Source of the DNA: Escherichia phage AugustePiccard
Sequence record: MZ501051
DNA length: 50,126 bases
Strand: one strand, 5' to 3'
Under the pieces are notes generated by a model. It saw only the letters and a program-made list of their open reading frames with translations. It did not search any database and had not been told where the DNA came from. Positions 7,616 through 47,001 of the stretch are shown here, one piece after another. Both the position numbers and the translations under genes were made by a program. The stretch's first letter is position 1, and each line of letters starts with the position of its first letter.

Positions 7616-9049
7616 ATGGCTAGCGAATTAAGAGCAGTAACCGCTGGGACTGCCCACGCCCTAAAGCAAAAAATCATGGAATACATTGCTGATGGTTGGC
7701 AGCCTTATGGAAGAATCCTTAACGCTGGAGCGACTAGCGTTGGTATCATCATGGCGAAAGGTACTACAGCAAGCATTAATGATGTTGATGTTATTACCGC
7801 AGATTCAAGGGCTTCTTTAGTTTCTAAGATTAACTCATCCATCGAAAATGGGTTTGAGATGTTCGGAGAGCAGGAAGTGAACGCAAGTAGATTTATCGCC
7901 TTCATGACTAAGGGTTCTCAAGGTTCATCTGGTGGCGGTGGAGAACCTGGACCAATTGGGCCTAAGGGTGAGAAGGGTGACAAGGGCGACAAGGGAGATG
8001 TTGGTGAGCGCGGACCCGCTGGCCTAGCTGGTGCGGCTGGCGCTACTGGTCCATCTGGCCCTCAAGGTTTAACTGGCCCCGCCGGCGCTAAAGGTGATAC
8101 TGGTGAGCAGGGACCAATGGGTCCAACTGGCGCTACTGGACCTAAAGGTGATACTGGCGAAACTGGTCCCGCCGGACCGCAGGGCCCAAGAGGATTGCAA
8201 GGTGAGCAGGGGGTTCCGGGCGAGGTTGGTCCTGCTGGATTGACATTCCAGGGCGCATGGGATTCTGCTGCGACATATGTGAAGGATGACACTGTAGTTT
8301 ATGATGGGTCTACTTGGTTTGCTCCAGATGCTGTAGCTGCTGGATTAGTCCCTGGAGTTGCTACTGAGTGGATTCTTTTAGCTGCGCAAGGCGCAAGGGG
8401 CGAGGATGGTCCGCAGGGTCCGGTTGGCCCTCAGGGTTTACAGGGTGCCACTGGCCCAGCGGGTCCTACTGGTGCTACTGGTGCTACAGGCCCGCAAGGC
8501 CCTAGAGGTATACAAGGTCAAACTGGCCCGGCAGGCCCAGCAGGTCCTCAGGGTGAGGCTGGTCCTCAGGGTATTCAGGGTCCGCAGGGTGTCGCTGGGC
8601 CTCAGGGATTAACTGGTCCTCAGGGTCCAAAAGGTGATAAAGGCGATGCTCCTTACACATTATTTAACTCGCAGAACGTTACATCAACATACATTGAAAT
8701 CCCTATTCCGCAAGTAACCAACACTGTACTTAGGGTTAGGCTTTCAGGTGCCAACTTTGAATATAGCGTTTTAAGCAAAGGCGGCGCCAATAGATATGTT
8801 GACTTTTACACATTCATCCCGTCATTAACTAGCTCAACGGGTAACATCTATACCGGAGGAACTACCTTGACACCAACTGGTAGCCTCTTTTTGGGTAACT
8901 CCCCCGTGGCTCTTGGATTGAGGGAGTTGACAATAACACTCAAGGAATGGGGCGACAGAACGCTAACTACAATAAAGGCGATACATCACGGCAGATCAGG
9001 TGACACAACAAGACCTTTGCAGATAACTATGTTTAGTAATAAGTATTAA
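7616..9049 (+). CDS. collagen-like (Gly-X-Y repeat) structural protein
   Basis: Two long Gly-X-Y tracts ([23 protein letters not shown]... and [20 protein letters not shown]...) between globular N- and C-terminal domains. Confidence 0.75.
7933..8643 (+). repeat. Gly-X-Y coding repeats (GGN-NNN-NNN periodicity)
   Basis: Repetitive GGT/GGC-CCN triplets inside the collagen-like gene. Confidence 0.7.
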
Positions 9050-24390: not shown

Positions 24391-24436
24391 ATAGTATCGC
24401 ATCCTTGCGATCAGTGTTTAGCAATTCGTGCTATTC
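24391..24436 (-). promoter_or_regulatory. box promoter for the Cor-like lipoprotein
   Basis: Minus strand: GAATAGCACGAATTGCTAAA, 22 nt, TACTAT, CCATCGAAACGAAACG; the box encodes the methyltransferase C-terminus N-S-T-N-C-stop. Confidence 0.6.
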
Positions 24437-26408: not shown

Positions 26409-26455
26409 AATATAACTAAAGATACCCAGTTGTCTTTAGCAATTAGTGCTATTTA
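26409..26455 (-). promoter_or_regulatory. box promoter for the Rha gene
   Basis: Minus strand: AAATAGCACTAATTGCTAAA, 22 nt, TATATT. Confidence 0.5.
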
Positions 26456-26576
26456 TCGCCAATTCCACCATAAATCACAGTTACACGTAACCGATGTAAC
26501 TCGATGTATACAATCTCGTCCGCGGAAAATGGTATACGCCCTGTTACGCCTGGTTACGCTATAGTTACATTAAAAT

Positions 26577-26624
26577 ATCTATATATATCAACCTTTTACT
26601 CTTATTATTATTATTATATATATT
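26577..26624. repeat. microsatellite (AT)n-(TTA)5-(TA)n in divergent region A
   Basis: atctatatatatatc...cttattattattattatatatatt. Confidence 0.8.
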
Positions 26625-26939
26625 ACTATGTATATCATGTAACTACTTCTATGGAGTGTTCCGGTTGTAATTTTAATATCATGTGGATTTATACAGTATC
26701 TAACAATCAGCATAGCAACGCACCCTCCTTGAAGAATGGTATACACGATATACACGCTGGTTACATTGAGCTATAGCTGGTCTGGGGTGCCAAAAAGCGT
26801 AACTAGTGGCAGTGCCTACACGGAATTACAAGGATTCACGCGTAAACTTAATAAATTGATAGGCACAAACGATATGACTTATCACCTCCTAGTGCATATA
26901 GTTATCTCATCGAAAGCAAACAACCAGAGAGATAAAGAA

Positions 26940-32012: not shown

Positions 32013-32935
32013 TAGTTTAGTAGTTCGCTTGCCTTATAGATTCTCTTTCTTATTCCTGACTTGAAAAAATTATCATCATTTGGCATTACCACATCAATAT
32101 TGCGATCGTCAGCAACGGCGAGTAAATCAAGATCGTGGCGAGTACAAGCGATGCGTAACTTGTATTTTCTAAGCGCGTAAGCAACCATTTCCATGTTGTA
32201 GATGGAGTAGCAAACAAGCACGCAGCGGTTGCCAGTAGCAATGTGAACACGATAGCCGTCAATGAGATTATCGACCAGATAAGCGTAATCATCATCCTTA
32301 AAGGAACCAATAACAGAAACAGATTGGCGAGTATAATCTTTTGCAGCATAACTAACACCTCCATATTCATTGATAAACATTACATTACACATTTCTTCTG
32401 ATATGCCGTCACTATAAGCCATAAAGCACGGCACTGCGTGTATTAGTTCGCCTGATTTTGTTCTGCCAACATCAAAGCCAAACTCGCTATAGATTCCCTC
32501 GTATGTACTGAGCGGAGTTGATTCTACTCTTTCAGTCCTTTCCATTATCTCTAAGCATCTTTCGTGGTCAATCTGAGCGCCCATTTTGTAGATCTGGGTT
32601 CTTGATGCTTGCTTGTTTGCTTTAACTATAACCTCAATTGGTGTTAAGTTCAGCCAGTCACCAAGCAAATTTACTGAATCGGCGAAGGACGATCCAGTGC
32701 ACTTCATGACCCATCCTATACCGGAGTCACTCCCGCATTTCGAACAAACTGCCGCGCCATTTCCTTTTTCACTGCCTATTTCGTCGGTAAATCTGAATCT
32801 GTCAGTGCCAAAGCAGTATGGGCATGGTCCGTGCTTCTTACTTAGGTGTCTATCATTCCAACCAAGTTCCTTTGCATAAAATGATTTCCACAATCCGGCC
32901 ATCTTAGGTATAACTTCATTCTTATCGTAATTCAT
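32012..32935 (-). CDS. DNA primase (zinc-ribbon type, putative)
   Basis: N-terminal zinc-ribbon HGPCPYCFGTDRFRF...CSKCG; position beside helicase and HNH. Confidence 0.5.
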   Translation of the reverse strand: MNYDKNEVIPKMAGLWKSFYAKELGWNDRHLSKKHGPCPYCFGTDRFRFTDEIGSEKGNGAAVCSKCGSDSGIGWVMKCTGSSFADSVNLLGDWLNLTPIEVIVKANKQASRTQIYKMGAQIDHERCLEIMERTERVESTPLSTYEGIYSEFGFDVGRTKSGELIHAVPCFMAYSDGISEEMCNVMFINEYGGVSYAAKDYTRQSVSVIGSFKDDDYAYLVDNLIDGYRVHIATGNRCVLVCYSIYNMEMVAYALRKYKLRIACTRHDLDLLAVADDRNIDVVMPNDDNFFKSGIRKRIYKASELLN

Positions 32936-33411
32936 TTGCTTAACCCGTGATTTTCGTGAAAGTTGTATTTTCTCTCTGCTTCAATTCTTACTTTATACGC
33001 CTGCTCTGGAGTATCGAAGTTCCCAAGGTGTAACTGCTTACCGTCAACCTTGATGTGAGCCTTAAATTTTCCGTGATTTAGCTTTGCCACTCCACAATAA
33101 CCAGTTGTTGATAAAACGCTAAGCCTGCAATTTCTTGAGTTACCTTGATTTGTTGTTACTCTTAGGTTTTCTATTCTGTTATCTAATTTGTTATGGTTTA
33201 TATGATCAATGTAGTCGCCATTTTGAAGTTCTCCATTAAACATCTCCCACACAACTCTATGTACGTAAGTCCTAAAGCCATTAACAGACACTTTGTAATA
33301 GCCAGATGTAGATAGTGAGTTGCACTCATCGCCAACCTTAACACGTCTTGCAGTGCTAATCTTCCAATGCAATTTGCCATCTACATAGTAAAAATAATCA
33401 TGCCAGTTCAT
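32932..33411 (-). CDS. HNH homing endonuclease with AP2-like domain (copy 2)
   Basis: Motif IDHINHNKLDNRIENLR; N-terminus MNWHDYFYY paralogous to copies 1 and 3; stop overlaps primase start (ATGA). Confidence 0.8.
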   Translation of the reverse strand: MNWHDYFYYVDGKLHWKISTARRVKVGDECNSLSTSGYYKVSVNGFRTYVHRVVWEMFNGELQNGDYIDHINHNKLDNRIENLRVTTNQGNSRNCRLSVLSTTGYCGVAKLNHGKFKAHIKVDGKQLHLGNFDTPEQAYKVRIEAERKYNFHENHGLSK

Positions 33412-36526: not shown

Positions 36527-36817
36527 ATGGCTACTATCTATACTGGTAAATTCTACGAATCACGCAAAACTGGTTATGAGTATGAATTAGTAATAACCCC
36601 AGAAGGTTATGTACTTGATGATGGTGAAGGGTACGCATTCGAAGTTAGCCCGACTTACAAAGATGATTTAGAAACTGTTAAAAACGCATTTGGCGAAAAA
36701 TTTGATGTTATTGATGATGGTGATGGCTACGCATTCGAAGTTAGCCCAACCTACAAAGATGATTTAGAAACTGTTAAAAACGCATTTGGCGAAAAAATTG
36801 ATGAGGTATCAGAGTAA
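36527..36817 (+). CDS. hypothetical small acidic protein with internal 32-aa tandem duplication
   Basis: Box promoter and leader; DDG(E/D)GYAFEVSPTYKDDLETVKNAFGEK occurs twice. Confidence 0.6.
   Translation: MATIYTGKFYESRKTGYEYELVITPEGYVLDDGEGYAFEVSPTYKDDLETVKNAFGEKFDVIDDGDGYAFEVSPTYKDDLETVKNAFGEKIDEVSE
36618..36809 (+). repeat. 96-bp tandem duplication (2 copies) inside ORF 36527..36817
   Basis: Two near-identical units starting gatgatggtga(a/t)gg(g/c)tacgcattcgaagttagccc... Confidence 0.75.
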
Positions 36818-39207: not shown

Positions 39208-39693
39208 ATGAATTGGCATGATATTTTTGAATACAACGATGGCATTCTTTATCATAAAGTTAAGTTATGTATAAGAAATGATGTTAACGTTGGTGATATT
39301 GCTGGGGGGGGCGTTAGGCAAAACGGCTATCACTACGTGAATTACAAAAATAAGTTTTACAAAAGGTCAAGGGTTGTATGGGAGATGTTTAATGGAGATA
39401 TACCTGAGGGATTTGTCATTGATCACGTCAACCATGACGCGACAGATGACAGGATAGAAAACCTAGAGTGCAAGGAGCGCAGGGATAACATGGTTAATGT
39501 AAAGCTAAGGATTGATAGCTCCTCTGGTGTAACTGGTGTAGCAAGAAAGAGCGGTAATAAGTGGAGGGCATACATAACAATCATGGGTAAGCAGAAGTCC
39601 AAGAGCTTTAACACGTTTGAGGATGCTTGCGCACAGAGGATTGAATGGTCGGTAACTCATGATTTTCACCCAAATCACGGTGGAAAATACTAA
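39208..39693 (+). CDS. HNH homing endonuclease with AP2-like domain (copy 3)
   Basis: Motif IDHVNHDATDDRIENLE; N-terminus MNWHDIFEY; own box promoter. Confidence 0.75.
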   Translation: MNWHDIFEYNDGILYHKVKLCIRNDVNVGDIAGGGVRQNGYHYVNYKNKFYKRSRVVWEMFNGDIPEGFVIDHVNHDATDDRIENLECKERRDNMVNVKLRIDSSSGVTGVARKSGNKWRAYITIMGKQKSKSFNTFEDACAQRIEWSVTHDFHPNHGGKY

Positions 39694-40787: not shown

Positions 40788-41161
40788 TGATGTGCGCGGC
40801 TTTATCTGGATGTTCAGCAACAGATGCACTGACCGGATTGATTGGCAGTAAGCCAGAGATTAGTGCACAGGCTGGCGCCGAGAACAACAAGGTTGGGGTT
40901 GGGTTAACAAATAAGGTTGATTCCAGTAACTCCAGTGAAGCCACGGTTAAAGACTCTAAGGTTGGGTCACTAGATAGCTCGAGCGGTAAAAAGACTGCCG
41001 ACAACTCGATTAGGGCCTCTACAATCACCGCGGAAAGGATTGAGATTACCAATAATGACTCATTCAGCATTTATGAAATACTGGCATTGATTGGATTTCC
41101 TCTGCTCATTATTTTTAATGGCTGCTATGTGCTTTACAGGGCAAACAAAAAAGCCTCCTAA
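40763..41161 (+). CDS. unimolecular spanin (lipoprotein with C-terminal TMD)
   Basis: Lipobox LSGC at the N-terminus and a C-terminal hydrophobic helix (ILALIGFPLLIIF); overlaps the endolysin 3' end. Confidence 0.65.
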   Translation: MLKWIAALVMCAALSGCSATDALTGLIGSKPEISAQAGAENNKVGVGLTNKVDSSNSSEATVKDSKVGSLDSSSGKKTADNSIRASTITAERIEITNNDSFSIYEILALIGFPLLIIFNGCYVLYRANKKAS

Positions 41162-41178
41162 TGGAGGCTATATTTTTA
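41148..41178. terminator. bidirectional terminator overlapping the spanin 3' end
   Basis: AGCCTCC-TAAT-GGAGGCT flanked by A6 and T5. Confidence 0.6.
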
Positions 41179-41511
41179 GCTAAATAACTCGTCGTCAGTC
41201 ATTCTTCCTATGTTCATCATCTCTTTTATGTATTTGCTTTCATACCCGTTAAGTGCCTCGAAGTTAAACCCAAATGGCCTCTTCAAGCTACCCTTGCTAA
41301 CGAACTCTCCGCACTTACCATCAATGTACCCCATGCTAAGCATCTTCGCGCAAAACTCCTTTGAAGCAGCGCTGCAAAACTCTCTATGCGACAATCCCGC
41401 CGCCTTGCTGAATCTCTGAGAGTCCTTATGTTGGTAGATGAATCGCGCCAAATGCTGGCGCGTGAAAAAGCTATAGGATTCGCAGAACTTAAATATATCG
41501 AGCAGGAACAT
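41176..41511 (-). CDS. hypothetical protein
   Basis: 111 aa, immediately downstream of the 527-aa gene on the minus strand. Confidence 0.45.
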   Translation of the reverse strand: MFLLDIFKFCESYSFFTRQHLARFIYQHKDSQRFSKAAGLSHREFCSAASKEFCAKMLSMGYIDGKCGEFVSKGSLKRPFGFNFEALNGYESKYIKEMMNIGRMTDDELFS

Positions 41512-41514
41512 TCA

Positions 41515-43098
41515 TCACCCCAGCAGTCGTGGATTAATGTAAACTTTATCACCAATCAGGCATGTATAGTTTTTCTCATCTAACATCGGCAGCAAGTGGT
41601 CTTTAATCTTTGTCATCACTCCAGCCTGAGACTCGAACGGCTTAACCTTGCGCGCAGCCTCATACAATGAACGAATGCCAACTACGCCTTTCCCGTTCTT
41701 TCCTTGCTTGATAAGGATATCAATCAGCTTATTCATCTCGGCATTGTCGCCAGCGTGACCAGCGGCGTTAGCAGATGACAGATAAGTCTTGCTAAGCTCC
41801 TGGAACATGATTACAGCCTCTTGCATTGTGTCCAGTCCAATCTCTCTGGACTTCTGCGGGCTTCCGCCATTTGGGTTAAACCAGTTACGGACAGTGTGAA
41901 TAACTGCGGCAATCCTGATAGCCTGCTTATCGAACTTGCCCAGCGCGCCGCGCAACATAGTATGTGAATACTTACCGCCATCAGCAAGATGGGGCTCCAT
42001 TTCCTGACGTGCACGGTTGAGATATTTCATCGCTGAGTTACTCACTGTCAGCTTTACTTCCTGCTCGCTCATGATTTCGTGAACCAAGCGGAAGTAGTCA
42101 GCCTTCAGTCCGCTGTCAATTGGCTCGTATGTTGACTCTCCATTCTCATCAACGAATACACGTTCGCCCAGGAAGGACTTTTCACGCACAAGCAGAAAAC
42201 GCTCCGACACACCGATACCACGCGCACCAGCATTCATAATGGCGTTGATTGTTTCGTCCTGCGCAATTACCGAGATGCAACCCATAGCAACGAAACTCAT
42301 GTTGTTCTCTGCGTTCGCACGCGCGATAGATACGTTACCAGCATCCCATGCTTTAAGCACGAGTTCACTGTTTGTTTTCTTTGAGCCATCTCCATAGGTC
42401 ATGCCCAGAAGTGAGTTCACGCTCGTCGCCTCATCCGAGATTACTGCGAAGTTTCCCTGGCGGTTGTTTATTCGCGCAAGTCCCTCAGGCGTGGTGTCGG
42501 ATACGGGGAAAACGATATCGCATAGCTTCTCGAGTTTCTCCTCCAACTCCTCTTTCTCTTCAAAAAGTGAAGCCATCTCTGAAGGAGATTTTTCCTGCTT
42601 CATCTCTTTGGATAATGCAGATAGTTTGGCCATAATCTTTTTGCGCTCGCGTTTTCGCAATTCATTTAGTCGCTCAGTCTCGGCAATCATCGGGGCAATA
42701 GAAAGTGAGTTAATCGCTGATTTACCGGTCGATGGAGGTTGACTTGTAACTACGTAAAGAGATGTTGGCTGCTGCGTTCCGTGATACTCAACAGTAAAGC
42801 GGCCCAGCATAGCAGCGGAAATGCAACCCAAAAAGTGCATATAAGCTGAAGACTCCGGGAACTGAACAGAACGAGCAATGTTGGCTGACAGTCTACCAAC
42901 AACGTCAACATCATTTCCGAGCGAGATTACAGGATACTTGTCATTGGCCGCATCAATCTCGACCGGTGCTTTCCAGAATGACTGAGACTGGCGATAGCCA
43001 TTAGCATTGATAGCCACGCGCAGGGGTGGGAGGTTTTCTGCGGCAGCTATTGCCATAACTTGTTCAACAGATAGTTTATCTTCGTTGAAATCAAACAT
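41515..43098 (-). CDS. large hypothetical protein with deviant P-loop (replication-associated?)
   Basis: 527 aa; P-loop-like PPSTGKS; N- and C-terminal segments paralogous to ORF 45945..46469; RBS GGAGAG. Confidence 0.55.
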   Translation of the reverse strand: MFDFNEDKLSVEQVMAIAAAENLPPLRVAINANGYRQSQSFWKAPVEIDAANDKYPVISLGNDVDVVGRLSANIARSVQFPESSAYMHFLGCISAAMLGRFTVEYHGTQQPTSLYVVTSQPPSTGKSAINSLSIAPMIAETERLNELRKRERKKIMAKLSALSKEMKQEKSPSEMASLFEEKEELEEKLEKLCDIVFPVSDTTPEGLARINNRQGNFAVISDEATSVNSLLGMTYGDGSKKTNSELVLKAWDAGNVSIARANAENNMSFVAMGCISVIAQDETINAIMNAGARGIGVSERFLLVREKSFLGERVFVDENGESTYEPIDSGLKADYFRLVHEIMSEQEVKLTVSNSAMKYLNRARQEMEPHLADGGKYSHTMLRGALGKFDKQAIRIAAVIHTVRNWFNPNGGSPQKSREIGLDTMQEAVIMFQELSKTYLSSANAAGHAGDNAEMNKLIDILIKQGKNGKGVVGIRSLYEAARKVKPFESQAGVMTKIKDHLLPMLDEKNYTCLIGDKVYINPRLLG

Positions 43099-43172
43099 TA
43101 TTTCTCTCCGTGCTGATTCTGAGCGGTCATTATATCAACGACCGCTTATAATTCATTATCAATTTTTGCTAT

Positions 43173-43523
43173 TTACAGGTATTTCGCTTCAAATAGGTAA
43201 GTCTGACACAGGGTGTAAAAACCAACATCTTCACTGCGGTAAAGCTGCCAAGCATTGCCATCCTCATCGTAAATGTAACCGGCAGATTGACCAAGACCCG
43301 CGTGAAGATTTACCTGGTAACGTTTATTTTCTTTAAAGTCTTTTTTAACTCCTGACTTGTGGTTAACCTTTGTGCAGTAAAGCGTTTTGGTCTTAATGTA
43401 TTTGCCACGCTCTTCGAGGTTAATCCATTTGCCATCTTTCTTGATTTGCTCTGCACCATCCTTAACGCGAGCTTTGTACAATACGTTTTCGTTGCTAATC
43501 CAGTTTTTAGTTGTTGTTGTCAT
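43173..43523 (-). CDS. hypothetical protein
   Basis: 116 aa; box promoter and conserved leader upstream on the minus strand. Confidence 0.5.
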   Translation of the reverse strand: MTTTTKNWISNENVLYKARVKDGAEQIKKDGKWINLEERGKYIKTKTLYCTKVNHKSGVKKDFKENKRYQVNLHAGLGQSAGYIYDEDGNAWQLYRSEDVGFYTLCQTYLFEAKYL

Positions 43524-43560
43524 TTTATTTACCTTTCGTTATTTCGTTTCGATGAGATGA

Positions 43561-43607
43561 ATATACAGGAAAAGCCCCCGAAGGGCTTTATCAATTAGTG
43601 CTATTTC
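43561..43607 (-). promoter_or_regulatory. box promoter with terminator hairpin in the spacer
   Basis: Minus strand: AATAGCACTAATTGATAAA, 22-nt spacer holding hairpin AGCCCTTCGGGGGCT, TATATT, leader CATCTCATCGAAACGAAAT. Confidence 0.5.
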
Positions 43608-43748
43608 GAGCCTTTTCTATCGCCTTGAGCATAATCTCATGGCTCTCAAGCAAGTCCTCGCGGAACCAGTCCCCACAAGGCCAGCCCTTTCCGCTGTAGG
43701 CGCTTATTATTTCAAGATCGAAATAATTTATCTCAGATGGTAATAGCA

Positions 43749-43988
43749 TCATTTCACCTCATCAAAAGTTGCGATACCAGGAATAAACATCCCAAACTTC
43801 CAGCCAGCAATGGCAATCCATCCAGAATCGTGCTTGTGTGGTCGCTCAGCGCCATTAATTAACCATTCGTTCGGGATTGTCTTGCCGTTAATGATTAGCG
43901 GCTCAGCGTCGTATACAGAGCCTTTGACGAATGGTGTTAGAATCTTCTTGTCAGTGCTTGTAATGCAGTTAGTGCAGCGAATTTTCAT
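43749..43988 (-). CDS. hypothetical protein
   Basis: 79 aa, N-terminal CTNC. Confidence 0.4.
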   Translation of the reverse strand: MKIRCTNCITSTDKKILTPFVKGSVYDAEPLIINGKTIPNEWLINGAERPHKHDSGWIAIAGWKFGMFIPGIATFDEVK

Positions 43989-44179
43989 AACTGAATCTCC
44001 ACCTCATCCTCGAATAAGTTAATTGGTTCCCGTATTGAGTTGATAACGGTAAATGTTCTAATCCCCATCGCAATATCTCTGTCAACCACATCGTAGACAT
44101 TGCCAATGAAAAGGCCATAATCAGTTTCATTTGACCCGTCCATGTCAATATCTTTAAACTTAACTAACTTAATTTTCAT
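43985..44179 (-). CDS. hypothetical acidic protein
   Basis: 64 aa, overlaps downstream start. Confidence 0.4.
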   Translation of the reverse strand: MKIKLVKFKDIDMDGSNETDYGLFIGNVYDVVDRDIAMGIRTFTVINSIREPINLFEDEVEIQL

Positions 44180-44359
44180 ATCTCAATCCTCACCAGGGTA
44201 AACATTCTTCGCAGCCAAGCCCATCGCAGCACAGGAATTCATCTTCTGACTGGAATTGCTTCGCCAGGTCAATATCGATTCGTCCGCGCAAAACCATGTC
44301 TGTATACATCTCATTTAATCCAATCAGTGCAGATTCGTGGCGTAATTCATCTTTCTTAT

Positions 44360-44617
44360 TCATACCTTTTCCATCTCCGCAATAAAGCAGTTGACAACAA
44401 TCAACTTATCTTCGGTGTCCAGCTTCGATGCCTTAAGTGCCTCGACAAGGTTTTTAATGTCGATGCCGTCATGGAACAACTCGGCGCCAATGTTGCACAA
44501 CTGAACGCTATTGATCGTCGGCGTGCTAACACTAACTTTAATCGTGTCCGCCTTAGCAAATCCAATACCAGATGCCAGGACTGCCGCGATGTATCCAATG
44601 GTGATTAACTTTTTCAC
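44360..44617 (-). CDS. small secreted protein (signal peptide)
   Basis: N-terminal signal peptide MKKLITIGYIAAVLASGIGFAKA. Confidence 0.5.
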   Translation of the reverse strand: MKKLITIGYIAAVLASGIGFAKADTIKVSVSTPTINSVQLCNIGAELFHDGIDIKNLVEALKASKLDTEDKLIVVNCFIAEMEKV

Positions 44618-44796
44618 AAATCATTACCCTTTAAGCTGTCATATCTGATGGCGTCTCTGTTGCACTTTCTGGTCTTGCCATGAAGCACCTGCTTAAACTC
44701 AATTGTACCTTGCTGCCTTAGCTTTTTATATCTTCCTTGCGACTTACTTATTTCTTCAATCTTTTGTTGCGCTTTCAATTCCGGTCTCTGCTTCAT
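44614..44796 (-). CDS. hypothetical basic protein
   Basis: 60 aa, Lys/Arg/Gln-rich; first gene downstream of box promoter at 44824..44870. Confidence 0.45.
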   Translation of the reverse strand: MKQRPELKAQQKIEEISKSQGRYKKLRQQGTIEFKQVLHGKTRKCNRDAIRYDSLKGNDL

Positions 44797-44823
44797 ATCT
44801 ATACCCTCGTTGTTGATGAGCTA

Positions 44824-44870
44824 ACTATACCCTCAACAGCCGCGCTTGTCTTTAGCAAAAAGTGCTATTC
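44824..44870 (-). promoter_or_regulatory. box promoter for the leftward small-gene block
   Basis: Minus strand: GAATAGCACTTTTTGCTAAAG, about 23 nt, TATAGT, leader CATCAACAACGAGGG. Confidence 0.55.
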
Positions 44871-44895
44871 GTTAGATTTATGGATTGTTGCGGAT

Positions 44896-44939
44896 ATTGC
44901 AATGATTCCCATGATTATTGCACATATAGCAATATTGCT
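44896..44939. promoter_or_regulatory. cluster of short palindromes (ATTGCAAT, AGCAATATTGCT) in divergent region B
   Basis: Perfect palindromes sharing the TTGC/GCAA half-site with the promoter box. Confidence 0.4.
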
Positions 44940-45150
44940 TCAGATGCAATGATGTTTTTGATTGTTGCGAAATGAGCAATAAAGTAGTGAGTGAGTGAAT
45001 GAAAGATGGATGGACTACCATACAAGTTGATTTTGATTCTGCTAATCCATTTTCACGCTTACACGTAACGCCCGTAGCGCGATGTAAGCCAACGCCTATC
45101 GTTACGCGAGTTACGCGCAGCTACGCCTAGACTTACACTATAAGTGCCTA

Positions 45151-45200
45151 ATATATATATATATCTTCTTTCTATTATTATTATTATTATTATTATTATT
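45151..45200. repeat. microsatellite (AT)7 ... (ATT)9 in divergent region B
   Basis: atatatatatatat then (att) x9. Confidence 0.85.
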
Positions 45201-45405
45201 GTATGTAAGTCATGTAACGGGGTTTCCGGCGATATCTATATGTTTTTTCCTATCAGTTATAGCCTTGGCTATAATTTAAGGTATGGAGTGGGTGTTTTGG
45301 GGCCATTTGCCTCGTTACACGCACGACACGCCACTTACATTAAGCTATAGCTGGGCTAGCATACCATTTCGCGTAACGACCCCCAAAAGTTACCAAAAAT
45401 TACAC

Positions 45406-45434
45406 TTGACTACATGTGTAAGTCGGGATATGAT
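45406..45434 (+). promoter_or_regulatory. canonical sigma70-like promoter (TTGACT-17-TATGAT)
   Basis: TTGACT 45406-45411, 17-nt spacer, TATGAT 45429-45434, then leader AAACGAGAGGAG. Confidence 0.5.
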
Positions 45435-45465
45435 GGACTCAACTTAAACGAGAGGAGTGATAGAG

Positions 45466-45945
45466 ATGAACGAGAAAGTAACATTGGGCCAAGTGATTCG
45501 TGAGATGGTGAAAGCAGCGCTTAAGTCTGAGGACAAGCAGATCAGCGTGACACTCAACAAGATTGAGAGCCTTATCGGCGCCGAGGAGGGTGGTCTAAAT
45601 AAGCTTAAGAGCTCATACATCTACAATACAACGGCTCGCATGCCTGAGTTGAGAGATGCCGGACTGAAGGCGACTCACCACTATGATGAAGAAAGGGGTG
45701 TTAATGAATATACTGGGAGTGAGATACTTGGAGACAAAAAGCTTGTTATTAAACTAATTCCAGGCTCGGCAAACATTGGAATCAGGAAGAAGACCAACGA
45801 CGCGATCAAGGATGAGGCAATCACTGAGTTCAAAGCCAGGATTTCTAAGGTGATGCCAGACCTTTCTGCGTATGAAGGTGAGGCCCTTGCAGCCGCTATG
45901 AAGGCCATTAAGGATTACCGTTTGATTATTGAGGAGATTAAGTGA
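45466..45945 (+). CDS. hypothetical protein
   Basis: ATG 45466 after leader AAACGAGAGGAG; canonical sigma70-like promoter upstream. Confidence 0.5.
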   Translation: MNEKVTLGQVIREMVKAALKSEDKQISVTLNKIESLIGAEEGGLNKLKSSYIYNTTARMPELRDAGLKATHHYDEERGVNEYTGSEILGDKKLVIKLIPGSANIGIRKKTNDAIKDEAITEFKARISKVMPDLSAYEGEALAAAMKAIKDYRLIIEEIK

Positions 45946-46469
45946 TGTTTGACTTTAACGAGGATAAACTGACAGAAGAGCAGGTAATTGAGATAGCCAA
46001 GCAAGATGGGCTGCCGCCGCTGCGAATTGCAATCAATGCTAACGGGTATCGACAGTCAACGGCGTTTTGGGGCTCGATTGATACCTCAGGGGTGTATAGT
46101 GGTGATGAGCTTGGTGTAATGATTAAAATCATCAGGAAAATGGGAGTTAACGGCAAAGGAGTTGTTGGCGTCAGGTCTCTATATGAAGGTGCTCGCAAGC
46201 TGAAACCATTTGCGGGGCGCGATGGGATGATGCTACTGATTAAGGATAAGCTAATTCCAGAGCTCGACAAGATGAATATCACGTGCCTCATTGGCGATAA
46301 GATTTACGTCAACCCTGCCTTGACGGATTTAAGCTGGCATCCTAACTTCAAAACTTACGAAGGTGAGCACGCTAGTAGACTACCATACCACTTGCGGTAC
46401 ACTGAGGAAGAGGTGGAGAAGGCTATTGAGTTCTATCGGAAAGCTAAATCACTAATTATCGCCAAATAG
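45945..46469 (+). CDS. truncated paralogue of the 527-aa protein (N- and C-terminal modules only)
   Basis: N-terminus MFDFNEDKLTEEQV...LPPLRIAINANGYRQS and the segment NGKGVVGVRSLYEGARKLKPF...NITCLIGDKIYVNP align to the termini of ORF 41515..43098. Confidence 0.6.
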   Translation: MFDFNEDKLTEEQVIEIAKQDGLPPLRIAINANGYRQSTAFWGSIDTSGVYSGDELGVMIKIIRKMGVNGKGVVGVRSLYEGARKLKPFAGRDGMMLLIKDKLIPELDKMNITCLIGDKIYVNPALTDLSWHPNFKTYEGEHASRLPYHLRYTEEEVEKAIEFYRKAKSLIIAK

Positions 46470-46509
46470 CACGAATTGCTAAACAATGGATCGGGTAGTC
46501 AGCTATGAT
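46464..46509 (+). promoter_or_regulatory. box promoter
   Basis: AAATAGCACGAATTGCTAAA, 22 nt, TATGAT, leader TTCATCGACAACAAAGAGG. Confidence 0.6.
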
Positions 46510-46533
46510 TACTTCATCGACAACAAAGAGGAA

Positions 46534-46746
46534 ATGAAGATGAAAAACGTTATTATTGAAGATATTCACTTTGACCAAGCTGAGGTAGGAATCGCAAAAA
46601 GCGTTCGCGGAAACGTTGTATATCTGAACTTCGATCCAGATAACTACGGGGACGGCCAGACACTGATGCAGTACAGTCCTGAGCAAGCACGCAAACTGGC
46701 GGCGGCGTTAATCATGGCAGCGGACGAGGCGGAGAAGCAGCGATAG
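46534..46746 (+). CDS. hypothetical small protein
   Basis: ATG after box promoter and leader (CATCGACAACAAAGAGGAA). Confidence 0.45.
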   Translation: MKMKNVIIEDIHFDQAEVGIAKSVRGNVVYLNFDPDNYGDGQTLMQYSPEQARKLAAALIMAADEAEKQR

Positions 46747-46786
46747 CACGAATTGTTAAAAAGGGATTCATCCTGACTGGTATAAT
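46743..46786 (+). promoter_or_regulatory. box promoter upstream of the long kinase leader
   Basis: ATAGCACGAATTGTTAAA, 22 nt, TATAAT. Confidence 0.6.
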
Positions 46787-47001
46787 CCCCACATCAACAA
46801 CGAGACACTACTTATCAGGTATGTGACTATGGCGATAAAGTCCATGCCGGACTAGGTTCGCACGGCGTCGATAATAAGTGACAATATACGAACATAAATT
46901 CAGCAGCAGGGGTATTGATATGCTCCTGCACTATTTAGACGAAAAATACGCAAATCTCATGCTTAAGACGCATGGTGGCAAAATAACGAGGATTAACATA
47001 A

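Follow-up and report, generated by a model that had tools for sequence, protein, structure and literature searches.

A 50,126-nucleotide stretch of DNA from Escherichia phage AugustePiccard (sequence record MZ501051; referred to below as the window) encodes, besides a replicative helicase of 527 residues (41515..43098, minus strand), a protein of 174 residues that combines the two ends of this helicase, without the intervening ATPase core, with a C-terminal tail of its own. The gene for the short protein (45945..46469, plus strand) belongs to phrog_7327 (E 6.9e-79), a family with no assigned function, and lies 2.8 kb from the helicase gene. Both open reading frames (ORFs) are present where an earlier, sequence-only reading of the window had placed them, on opposite strands and flanking a divergent non-coding region. 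Judged by its sequence, the short protein would be unable to unwind DNA and probably tunes or mimics the helicase. We tentatively favor its being a non-catalytic accessory factor, engaging the partners of the helicase termini and modulating the recruitment of helicase and primase, and we place the likelihood of this a little short of even.

The long ORF is, on the sequence evidence, the replicative helicase of the phage, a ring ATPase of the DUF3987/superfamily 6 (SF6) type related to MCM, for which unwinding activity is predicted. Residues 81-430 match Pfam PF13148 (DUF3987) with 142.4 bits (cut-off 27; E 2.8e-41), the protein matches the 'DNA helicase' family phrog_2373 with E 2.9e-258, and it shares 96-98% identity with the proteins annotated as DNA helicases in phages DTL and PCEc3. 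The Walker A motif or P-loop, PPSTGKS, occupies residues 121-127 (42718..42738, minus strand) and a Walker-B-like motif, VISDE, residues 219-223; Walker A and B motifs have been described for the DUF3987 helicase family, of which a distant member, a PriCT-DUF3987 protein, is a helicase of 5'-3' polarity and binds its own primase-polymerase (PMC11724360). DUF3987 proteins are SF6 helicases that are reported to carry a winged helix-turn-helix at their C-terminal end (PMC4889955). The long ORF is a member of the DUF3987/SF6 replicative helicases of phages and mobile elements (AgaPH, for example, and distantly MCM), with the same core, Walker A and B motifs and C-terminal winged helix; its primase is encoded elsewhere in the genome. 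Its N-terminal module, or N-module, comprises residues 1-45 (42964..43098, minus strand; E 8.5e-27 with an N-module hidden Markov model, HMM) and its winged helix residues 448-527 (41518..41757, minus strand; winged-helix HMM E 5e-32). The N-module is not a PriCT domain and matches no Pfam model.

It is these two modules that the short protein retains. BLASTP aligned helicase residues 1-42 with residues 1-42 of the short form (31/42 identical, 74%; E 4e-20) and helicase residues 436-525 with residues 38-126 (49/91 identical, 54%; E 2e-21); the two segments are collinear, and no third significant segment was found between the proteins. PHROG profiles cross-match likewise, residues 439-526 of the helicase matching phrog_7327 and residues 53-126 of the short form matching phrog_2373, so the terminal similarity that the sequence-only reading had pointed out is significant. 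The segment missing from the short form is helicase residues ~43-447, the ~400-residue ATPase core that contains the Walker A and B motifs. That the short protein is devoid of the putative NTPase core, as had been proposed, is borne out by BLAST, which skips helicase residues 43-435, and by a motif check that found neither a Walker A nor a Walker B motif in it. The short form has no Pfam match at E <= 0.1, and searches with the N-module, the short form and divergent short forms gave none in Pfam at E <= 10 or in NCBIfam. With no DUF3987 core, no Pfam match and no Walker motifs, the protein is therefore a paralogue of the termini of DUF3987 helicases, whose N-terminal and winged-helix modules it shares, and not itself a helicase. 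It aligns with phrog_7327 over its full length (residues 1-171 on profile positions 1-176 of 179), and an HMM scan of the rest of the window found the N-module and winged helix in no gene but these two. As DNA, the two shared parts are only ~65-70% identical, with many synonymous differences, and the window contains no long inverted repeat joining the two genes, which indicates that the likeness is kept at the protein level.

Three parts can be distinguished in the short protein. The N-module (residues 1-45; 45945..46079, plus strand) consists of the peptide MFDF.E.KL and helices at residues 11-21, 25-33 and 36-41; the winged helix occupies residues 52-126 (46098..46322, plus strand); and a unique tail, residues 127-174 (46323..46466, plus strand), ends in a helix at residues 154-172 (..AIEFYRKAKSL..). 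The sequence-only reading had recognized only the two terminal modules, both of which are indeed retained, but it had overlooked the 48-residue tail, which is conserved across homologues and for which no counterpart was found in the helicase or elsewhere in the window. An AlphaFold2 model built on a 123-sequence alignment has a mean predicted local distance difference test (pLDDT) score of 86.9 and a predicted template modeling score of 0.74, with pLDDT values of 93-94 over residues 11-40; a single-sequence model (pLDDT 40) was discarded. In this model residues 52-126 form a canonical winged helix (helix 55-69, strand 73-75, helices 76-83 and 95-109, hairpin 113-122), identified as such by its H1-S1-H2-H3-S2-wing-S3 topology and by structural matches to winged-helix domains, the closest being those of ORC/Cdc6 and of kleisins. 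Winged helices of these two kinds are attached to ATPases and serve to bind partners and DNA. Foldseek returned no match to the short form in the PDB at E <= 0.001, and neither sequence nor profile searches gave a significant PDB match for the helicase, the short form, the 123-sequence profile or the DUF7174 protein encoded next to the short form. A model of the DTL homologue from BFVD, built independently, superposes on ours with a template modeling score of 0.95, and this agreement supports the arrangement of N-module and winged helix as one compact unit. The termini described earlier as being of 'interaction type' can thus be specified: one is a three-helix module, the other a basic winged helix, and the prediction has them packed together as a single compact domain. 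Both paralogues have a basic winged helix (isoelectric point, pI, 9.3 in the helicase and 9.6 in the short form) and an acidic N-module (pI 4.4-4.9); the helicase winged helix is 54-62% identical to short-form residues 51-126, in which R84 and K119 are nearly invariant.

Selection was analysed with Nei-Gojobori estimates in eight genomes, each of which has the helicase gene and the short gene. The helicases in this sample are 91-98% identical and the short forms 41-88%; the ratio of nonsynonymous to synonymous substitution rates (dN/dS) is 0.013-0.042 for the helicase and 0.12-0.47, typically 0.2, for the short form, at comparable and largely saturated dS, so that by this measure the short protein evolves about ten times faster. 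The short gene is nonetheless under purifying selection. Its N-module is the best-conserved part (68% mean identity; dN/dS 0.15), followed by the winged helix (0.19), the tail (0.46) and the linker (0.56). A functionless, decaying remnant of a duplicated helicase gene would account for the disrupted alleles of several isolates and the replacement of the gene in phage Rtp, both described below, but it is hard to reconcile with a dN/dS of ~0.2 over saturated dS in eight genomes, with several hundred clusters that keep both the length and the novel tail, with a confident and compact predicted fold, or with an intact ribosome-binding site (RBS) and translational coupling; we regard decay as very improbable.

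Where the two paralogues of one genome are compared, dS is either saturated or cannot be computed, which makes the duplication old. The N-modules of such pairs are 64-76% identical in every genome, and the persistence of this identity at saturated dS argues that their likeness is due to selection rather than gene conversion; the winged helices range from 67% identity down to 29%. The sequence-only reading had proposed an inverted duplication followed by internal deletion. Duplication with internal deletion is still the most parsimonious origin, because the modules are present in every Drexlerviridae helicase examined, including that of T1, and the short form only in a subset of these phages. 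The event was ancient, however, and a recent duplication or gene conversion was rejected in view of the saturated paralogue dS, the heavy synonymous change and the lack of a long inverted repeat.

Word-indexed searches returned 333 and 358 clusters of short-form homologues, several hundred of them metagenomic, and among the matches listed (120 per search) almost all are 170-190 residues long. In tblastn searches, a full-length short form was found in 100-112 of the ~770-880 phage records with a match; the carriers are all Escherichia or Shigella phages and belong to the Braunvirinae and Rogunavirinae. JK06, of the Rogunavirinae, has the short form as JK_46, coupled to the DUF7174 gene JK_47 as in the window; another JK06 protein, JK_55P, came up as a structural match and was rejected, being a fragment of a frameshifted helicase annotation. 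The short gene is conserved but dispensable, an accessory and not a core gene. T1 (Tunavirinae) has the N-module and winged helix in its helicase only and no short form; Rtp (Braunvirinae), with a helicase 96% identical to that of the window, keeps a 19-codon remnant of the short gene (annotated rtp2); and disrupted alleles, in sequence that is otherwise intact, occur in four isolate genomes. In DTL codon 141 has changed from GAG to TAG, in the 44,219-bp vB_EcoS isolates a glycine codon has become TGA at the aligned codon adjacent to the DTL stop, in CEB_EC3a codon 37 is TAA, and in IME542 there is a stop and a frameshift. The two independent stops at codons 140/141 remove only the tail, the sequence downstream is still conserved, and a 140-residue allele is present on 18 contigs; such stops may have arisen by chance, may have been tolerated during propagation on suppressor hosts, or may point to selection against the tail.

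Dispensability disfavors an obligatory role as a loader. An essential helicase loader or adaptor of the Cdt1 or DnaC kind, docking through contacts between like modules, would suit the ORC/Cdc6-type winged helix and the probable co-expression of the two genes from a shared control region, and the winged helices of Cdt1 do bind the MCM subunits Mcm2, 4 and 6 during loading (PMC5490006). Yet T1 has no short form, Rtp has lost it despite its 96%-identical helicase, and DTL, CEB_EC3a, IME542 and the 44,219-bp vB_EcoS isolates were all propagated as phages with disrupted alleles; we consider an essential loader highly unlikely.

The same pattern of loss bears on a role in conflict. In Rtp (1052-1383) the remnant is followed by rtp3, a lipoprotein-like gene with a signal peptide and a Cys lipobox, which marks the slot of the short gene as a site of gene replacement. 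The short gene lies in a variable left-end block beside the genome end, where Rtp has a T4 Stp-like gene and the lipoprotein and T1 has unrelated genes. The short form might thus be an anti-defense decoy or other host-specific countermeasure, whose helicase-like surfaces titrate a host immune sensor or inhibitor or interfere with the helicases of co-infecting relatives. Its roughly tenfold faster evolution, its repeated loss or inactivation in isolates, its position in a block that is exchanged in Rtp and T1, and the independent stops at adjacent codons that clip only the tail, as if the tail were a liability in some hosts, are all in keeping with this. On the other hand, dN/dS exceeds 0.5 in no pair, no defense system sensing a T1-like DUF3987 helicase was found in the literature searched, and the helicases of related phages are 91-97% identical, so that telling a competitor's helicase apart would be hard. 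On balance we think such a decoy unlikely, about half as probable as the accessory factor, though a real contender. A more specific version, a helicase-mimicking 'microprotein' that absorbs a host sensor or inhibitor or sabotages helicase recruitment by competing T1-like phages, would explain the fast evolution, recurrent loss and repeated tail clipping, and seems to us somewhat less probable again.

The sequence around the short gene contains putative expression signals. Its start codon is the ATG at 45945 (a GTG lies one codon upstream, at 45942), preceded at a distance of seven bases by the RBS GAGGAG (45932-45937). Immediately upstream lies a gene of the DUF7174 family (45466..45945, plus strand; Pfam PF23796, E 6.7e-46; phrog_4841), whose stop overlaps the ATG of the short gene (TGATG), which predicts translational coupling, and which has a GAGGAG RBS of its own at 45450-45455. 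A sigma-70-like promoter for this operon, TTGACT-17-TATGAT (45406..45434, plus strand), is proposed on the strength of a 10/12 consensus match only. Conserved length across clusters, a dN/dS of 0.2, the RBS, the predicted coupling and the promoter-like site together indicate that the short ORF is a real gene. The helicase operon leaves the same 0.5-kb non-coding region (44870..45405) in the opposite direction. This divergent region contains TTAC(A/G)C-type repeats flanking (AT)7 and (ATT)9 tracts, and part of it (45020-45405) is homologous over ~390 nucleotides (nt) to a second divergent intergenic region at 26440-26830. Both have clusters of TTAC(A/G)C / GTAAC around (AT)n and (ATT)n tracts and a conserved AGCTATAGCTGG block, and TTAC(A/G)C occurs 11 times in the two regions where 1.3 occurrences would be expected. 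DTL, Rtp and JK06 also have (ATT)n tracts, in each case at two loci of comparable spacing; in DTL the windows with most TTAC(A/G)C fall on the (ATT)n loci, and in T1 on the two divergent regions. The physical genome end falls in the divergent region between helicase and short form in the records of T1, Rtp and ESCO41. We regard 26440-26830 and 45020-45405 as candidate origins or shared control regions; the literature search on DUF7174 and on the origin or transcriptome of Drexlerviridae found nothing relevant.

This arrangement raises the alternative that the short form is a neofunctionalized, stand-alone DNA-binding protein, whose winged helix would act on the repeat-rich divergent regions as a regulator of transcription, origin function or packaging independently of the helicase. 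The fold itself, its pI of 9.6 and the nearly invariant R84 and K119 point in this direction, as do the neighboring region, whose TTAC(A/G)C repeats are iteron-like and accompanied by AT-rich tracts and which has a second copy at 26.5 kb and recurs in relatives, and the drift of the short-form winged helix from that of the helicase. However, the best structural matches are winged helices that often bind protein (kleisin-SMC, ORC/Cdc6), and the module that has remained most faithful to the helicase is the acidic N-module and not the winged helix. We judge an independent DNA-binding role to be possible but rather unlikely, about as probable as the decoy.

The accessory-factor reading, which we prefer, can be put as follows. 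By analogy with characterized relatives, the modules retained would be those parts of MCM-type/DUF3987 helicases that contact partners and DNA. The helicase gene would have undergone a single duplication, in a phage ancestral to the T1-like Braunvirinae and Rogunavirinae; the duplicate would then have lost codons ~43-447 and later acquired its new C-terminal helix. What survived may be thought of as 'handles': the acidic three-helix N-module, with a conserved and flexible MFDF..KL tip, and the basic winged helix. With the ring-forming ATPase core gone, the short protein cannot be a motor and probably has no place in the helicase hexamer. It would instead act by occupying ligands normally bound by the helicase termini, which for the winged helix may be DNA at an origin or fork, or an ATPase surface, and for the N-module may be the phage primase or a factor of the host replisome; the phage itself has no DNA polymerase. 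The effect would be to tune, and most likely to restrain or time, the recruitment of helicase and primase early in infection, with the short form expressed from a control region that would also drive the helicase operon the other way. Two observations weigh against this proposal. The winged helix of the short form has diverged strongly from that of the helicase in some phages (29% identity in e4/1c), which argues against both paralogues always binding the same site; and fast evolution, recurrent loss and location in the variable left-end block are no less in keeping with a host-specific role or an arms race.

Viral replication proteins are already known to have derivatives that are shortened or lack the motor. 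OBPC (UL8.5) of herpes simplex virus 1 is a separately made protein that corresponds to the C-terminal, DNA-binding part of UL9, the origin-binding helicase, and is thought to modulate origin-dependent replication by competition. OBPC and the short form are both motor-less derivatives of a viral initiator or helicase that retain one or more binding modules, but OBPC is produced in frame from the gene of the full-length protein and comprises the C-terminus only, whereas the short form has a paralogous gene to itself, has diverged, retains both termini and has a new tail. With T7 gp4B, phiX174 A* and the Rep52/40 proteins of adeno-associated virus, a single replication function gives rise to a pair of related proteins that differ in domain content, and the smaller modulates the activity of the larger; these shortened forms come from splicing or internal starts and in most cases retain the motor, whereas the short form is a duplicate that has lost the motor by internal deletion. 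The winged-helix domains of Cdt1 and of ORC/Cdc6, which take part in MCM loading, have no sequence homology to the phage protein, which differs from them in being dispensable and derived from a helicase. The eukaryotic microProteins, such as the Id proteins and LITTLE ZIPPER, are small paralogues that keep only an interaction domain and act by sequestration; here the likeness is one of logic only, since they belong to a different kingdom and relate to transcription factors. In the literature searched we found no case of an SF6 helicase with a separate paralogous gene in which both its termini are retained, fused as one domain with a new tail.

The short-form family is narrow, a profile search of 1.84 billion cluster representatives having returned 48 proteins only; in the same set the N-module is almost confined to these helicases and short forms. 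A Rosetta-stone search among the 48 representatives found no informative alternative architecture carrying the N-module or winged helix. Three proteins (P0260, P0263 and P0280) appear to be scrambled or chimeric assemblies of helicase pieces. Another, the metagenomic protein P0276 (114 residues), has helicase residues 1-66 fused to the C-terminal part of a phrog_2684 protein, the product of a gene that in the window (43173-43523) lies just upstream of the helicase; either the rearrangement is real or the assembly is chimeric. A weak match, P0271, is a eukaryote-like protein of 633 residues with a DnaJ C-terminus; it contains five repeats, (M/I)TAEEA(L/I)AAAEAEGLPL(I/V)RSAxxSSGY(K/R)HV, resembling N-module residues 8-38 (combined E 6e-8), each followed by a segment that looks AP2-like, although Pfam gave no AP2 match. 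The likeness could be remote homology or convergence.

The window is most probably the whole genome of a T1-like coliphage of the Drexlerviridae, near Loudonvirus DTL. Its first ORF encodes the terminase small subunit, its gene order is collinear with that of T1-like coliphages of 44-51 kb and is that of the annotated DTL genome (Drexlerviridae; Braunvirinae; Loudonvirus), and 149 phage records match positions 41000-47000 by megablast, with a top identity of 88% (PsgS01F/PCEc3, DTL). It has no terminal direct repeat and is therefore most likely a single complete genome copy. In the annotation of the relatives DTL, T1 and Rtp, the replication genes besides the helicase are a separate primase, a SNF2-type helicase, Erf, an exonuclease VIII homologue and a single-stranded DNA-binding-like protein, and there is no DNA polymerase gene. 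Free-standing HNH endonuclease genes are scattered through the replication and lysis region (39208-39693 and 32932-33411), one of the two with an AP2-like SSSGVTGV...KW motif; their positions vary among relatives, and in T1 one lies directly upstream of the helicase. Elsewhere, ORF 36527-36817 contains a 96-nt tandem duplication in perfect register (36609-36800; 93% identical), and ORF 7616-9049, in the head/structural region, has collagen-like Gly-X-Y repeats at 8036-8626 in GGT-CCT-CAG-type units of 9/18 nt.

A 19-nt box, AATAGCAC(G)AATTGCTAAA, is repeated through the window in 18 copies, against 0.1 expected by chance. As mapped in the analysis of repeat families, they lie on the plus strand at 2712, 17840, 28103, 31947, 36444, 37222, 39135, 46465, 46742, 47616, 48038 and 48605, and on the minus strand at 24417, 25163, 26435, 43155, 43587 and 44851. 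One copy belongs to a promoter-like cassette upstream of the helicase (43129..43173, minus strand), in which an AATAGCA..TTGATAAT box is followed 22 nt downstream by TATAAT. The copies that were read through have a TATAGT-like hexamer 22 nt after TTGCTA, then a conserved CATCGAAACGA leader and an RBS, and at least 17 of the 18 are oriented with the transcription of the flanking genes. Since a 22-nt spacing is not canonical for sigma-70, the box may represent a phage-specific class of promoter or operator. The stop codon of the short form lies inside one copy; the operon of DUF7174 and the short form has no box of its own.

T1-like phages are common laboratory coliphages, relevant to therapy, and little is understood of how they replicate; their genomes provide helicase and primase but neither a polymerase nor a recognized initiator. 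PHROG 7327, so far an unannotated family of phage proteins, gains a structural identity, and a copy reduced to handles marks the interaction surfaces of the helicase and offers a ready probe for the ligands of its termini, be these the origin, the primase or parts of the host replisome. If the short form is a regulator or decoy, it would provide a clear case, in a bacterial virus, of a domain-deleted paralogue that controls or mimics its parent enzyme; if the role is one of conflict, it would represent a new class of phage counter-defense or inter-phage weapon, made by hollowing out an essential enzyme.

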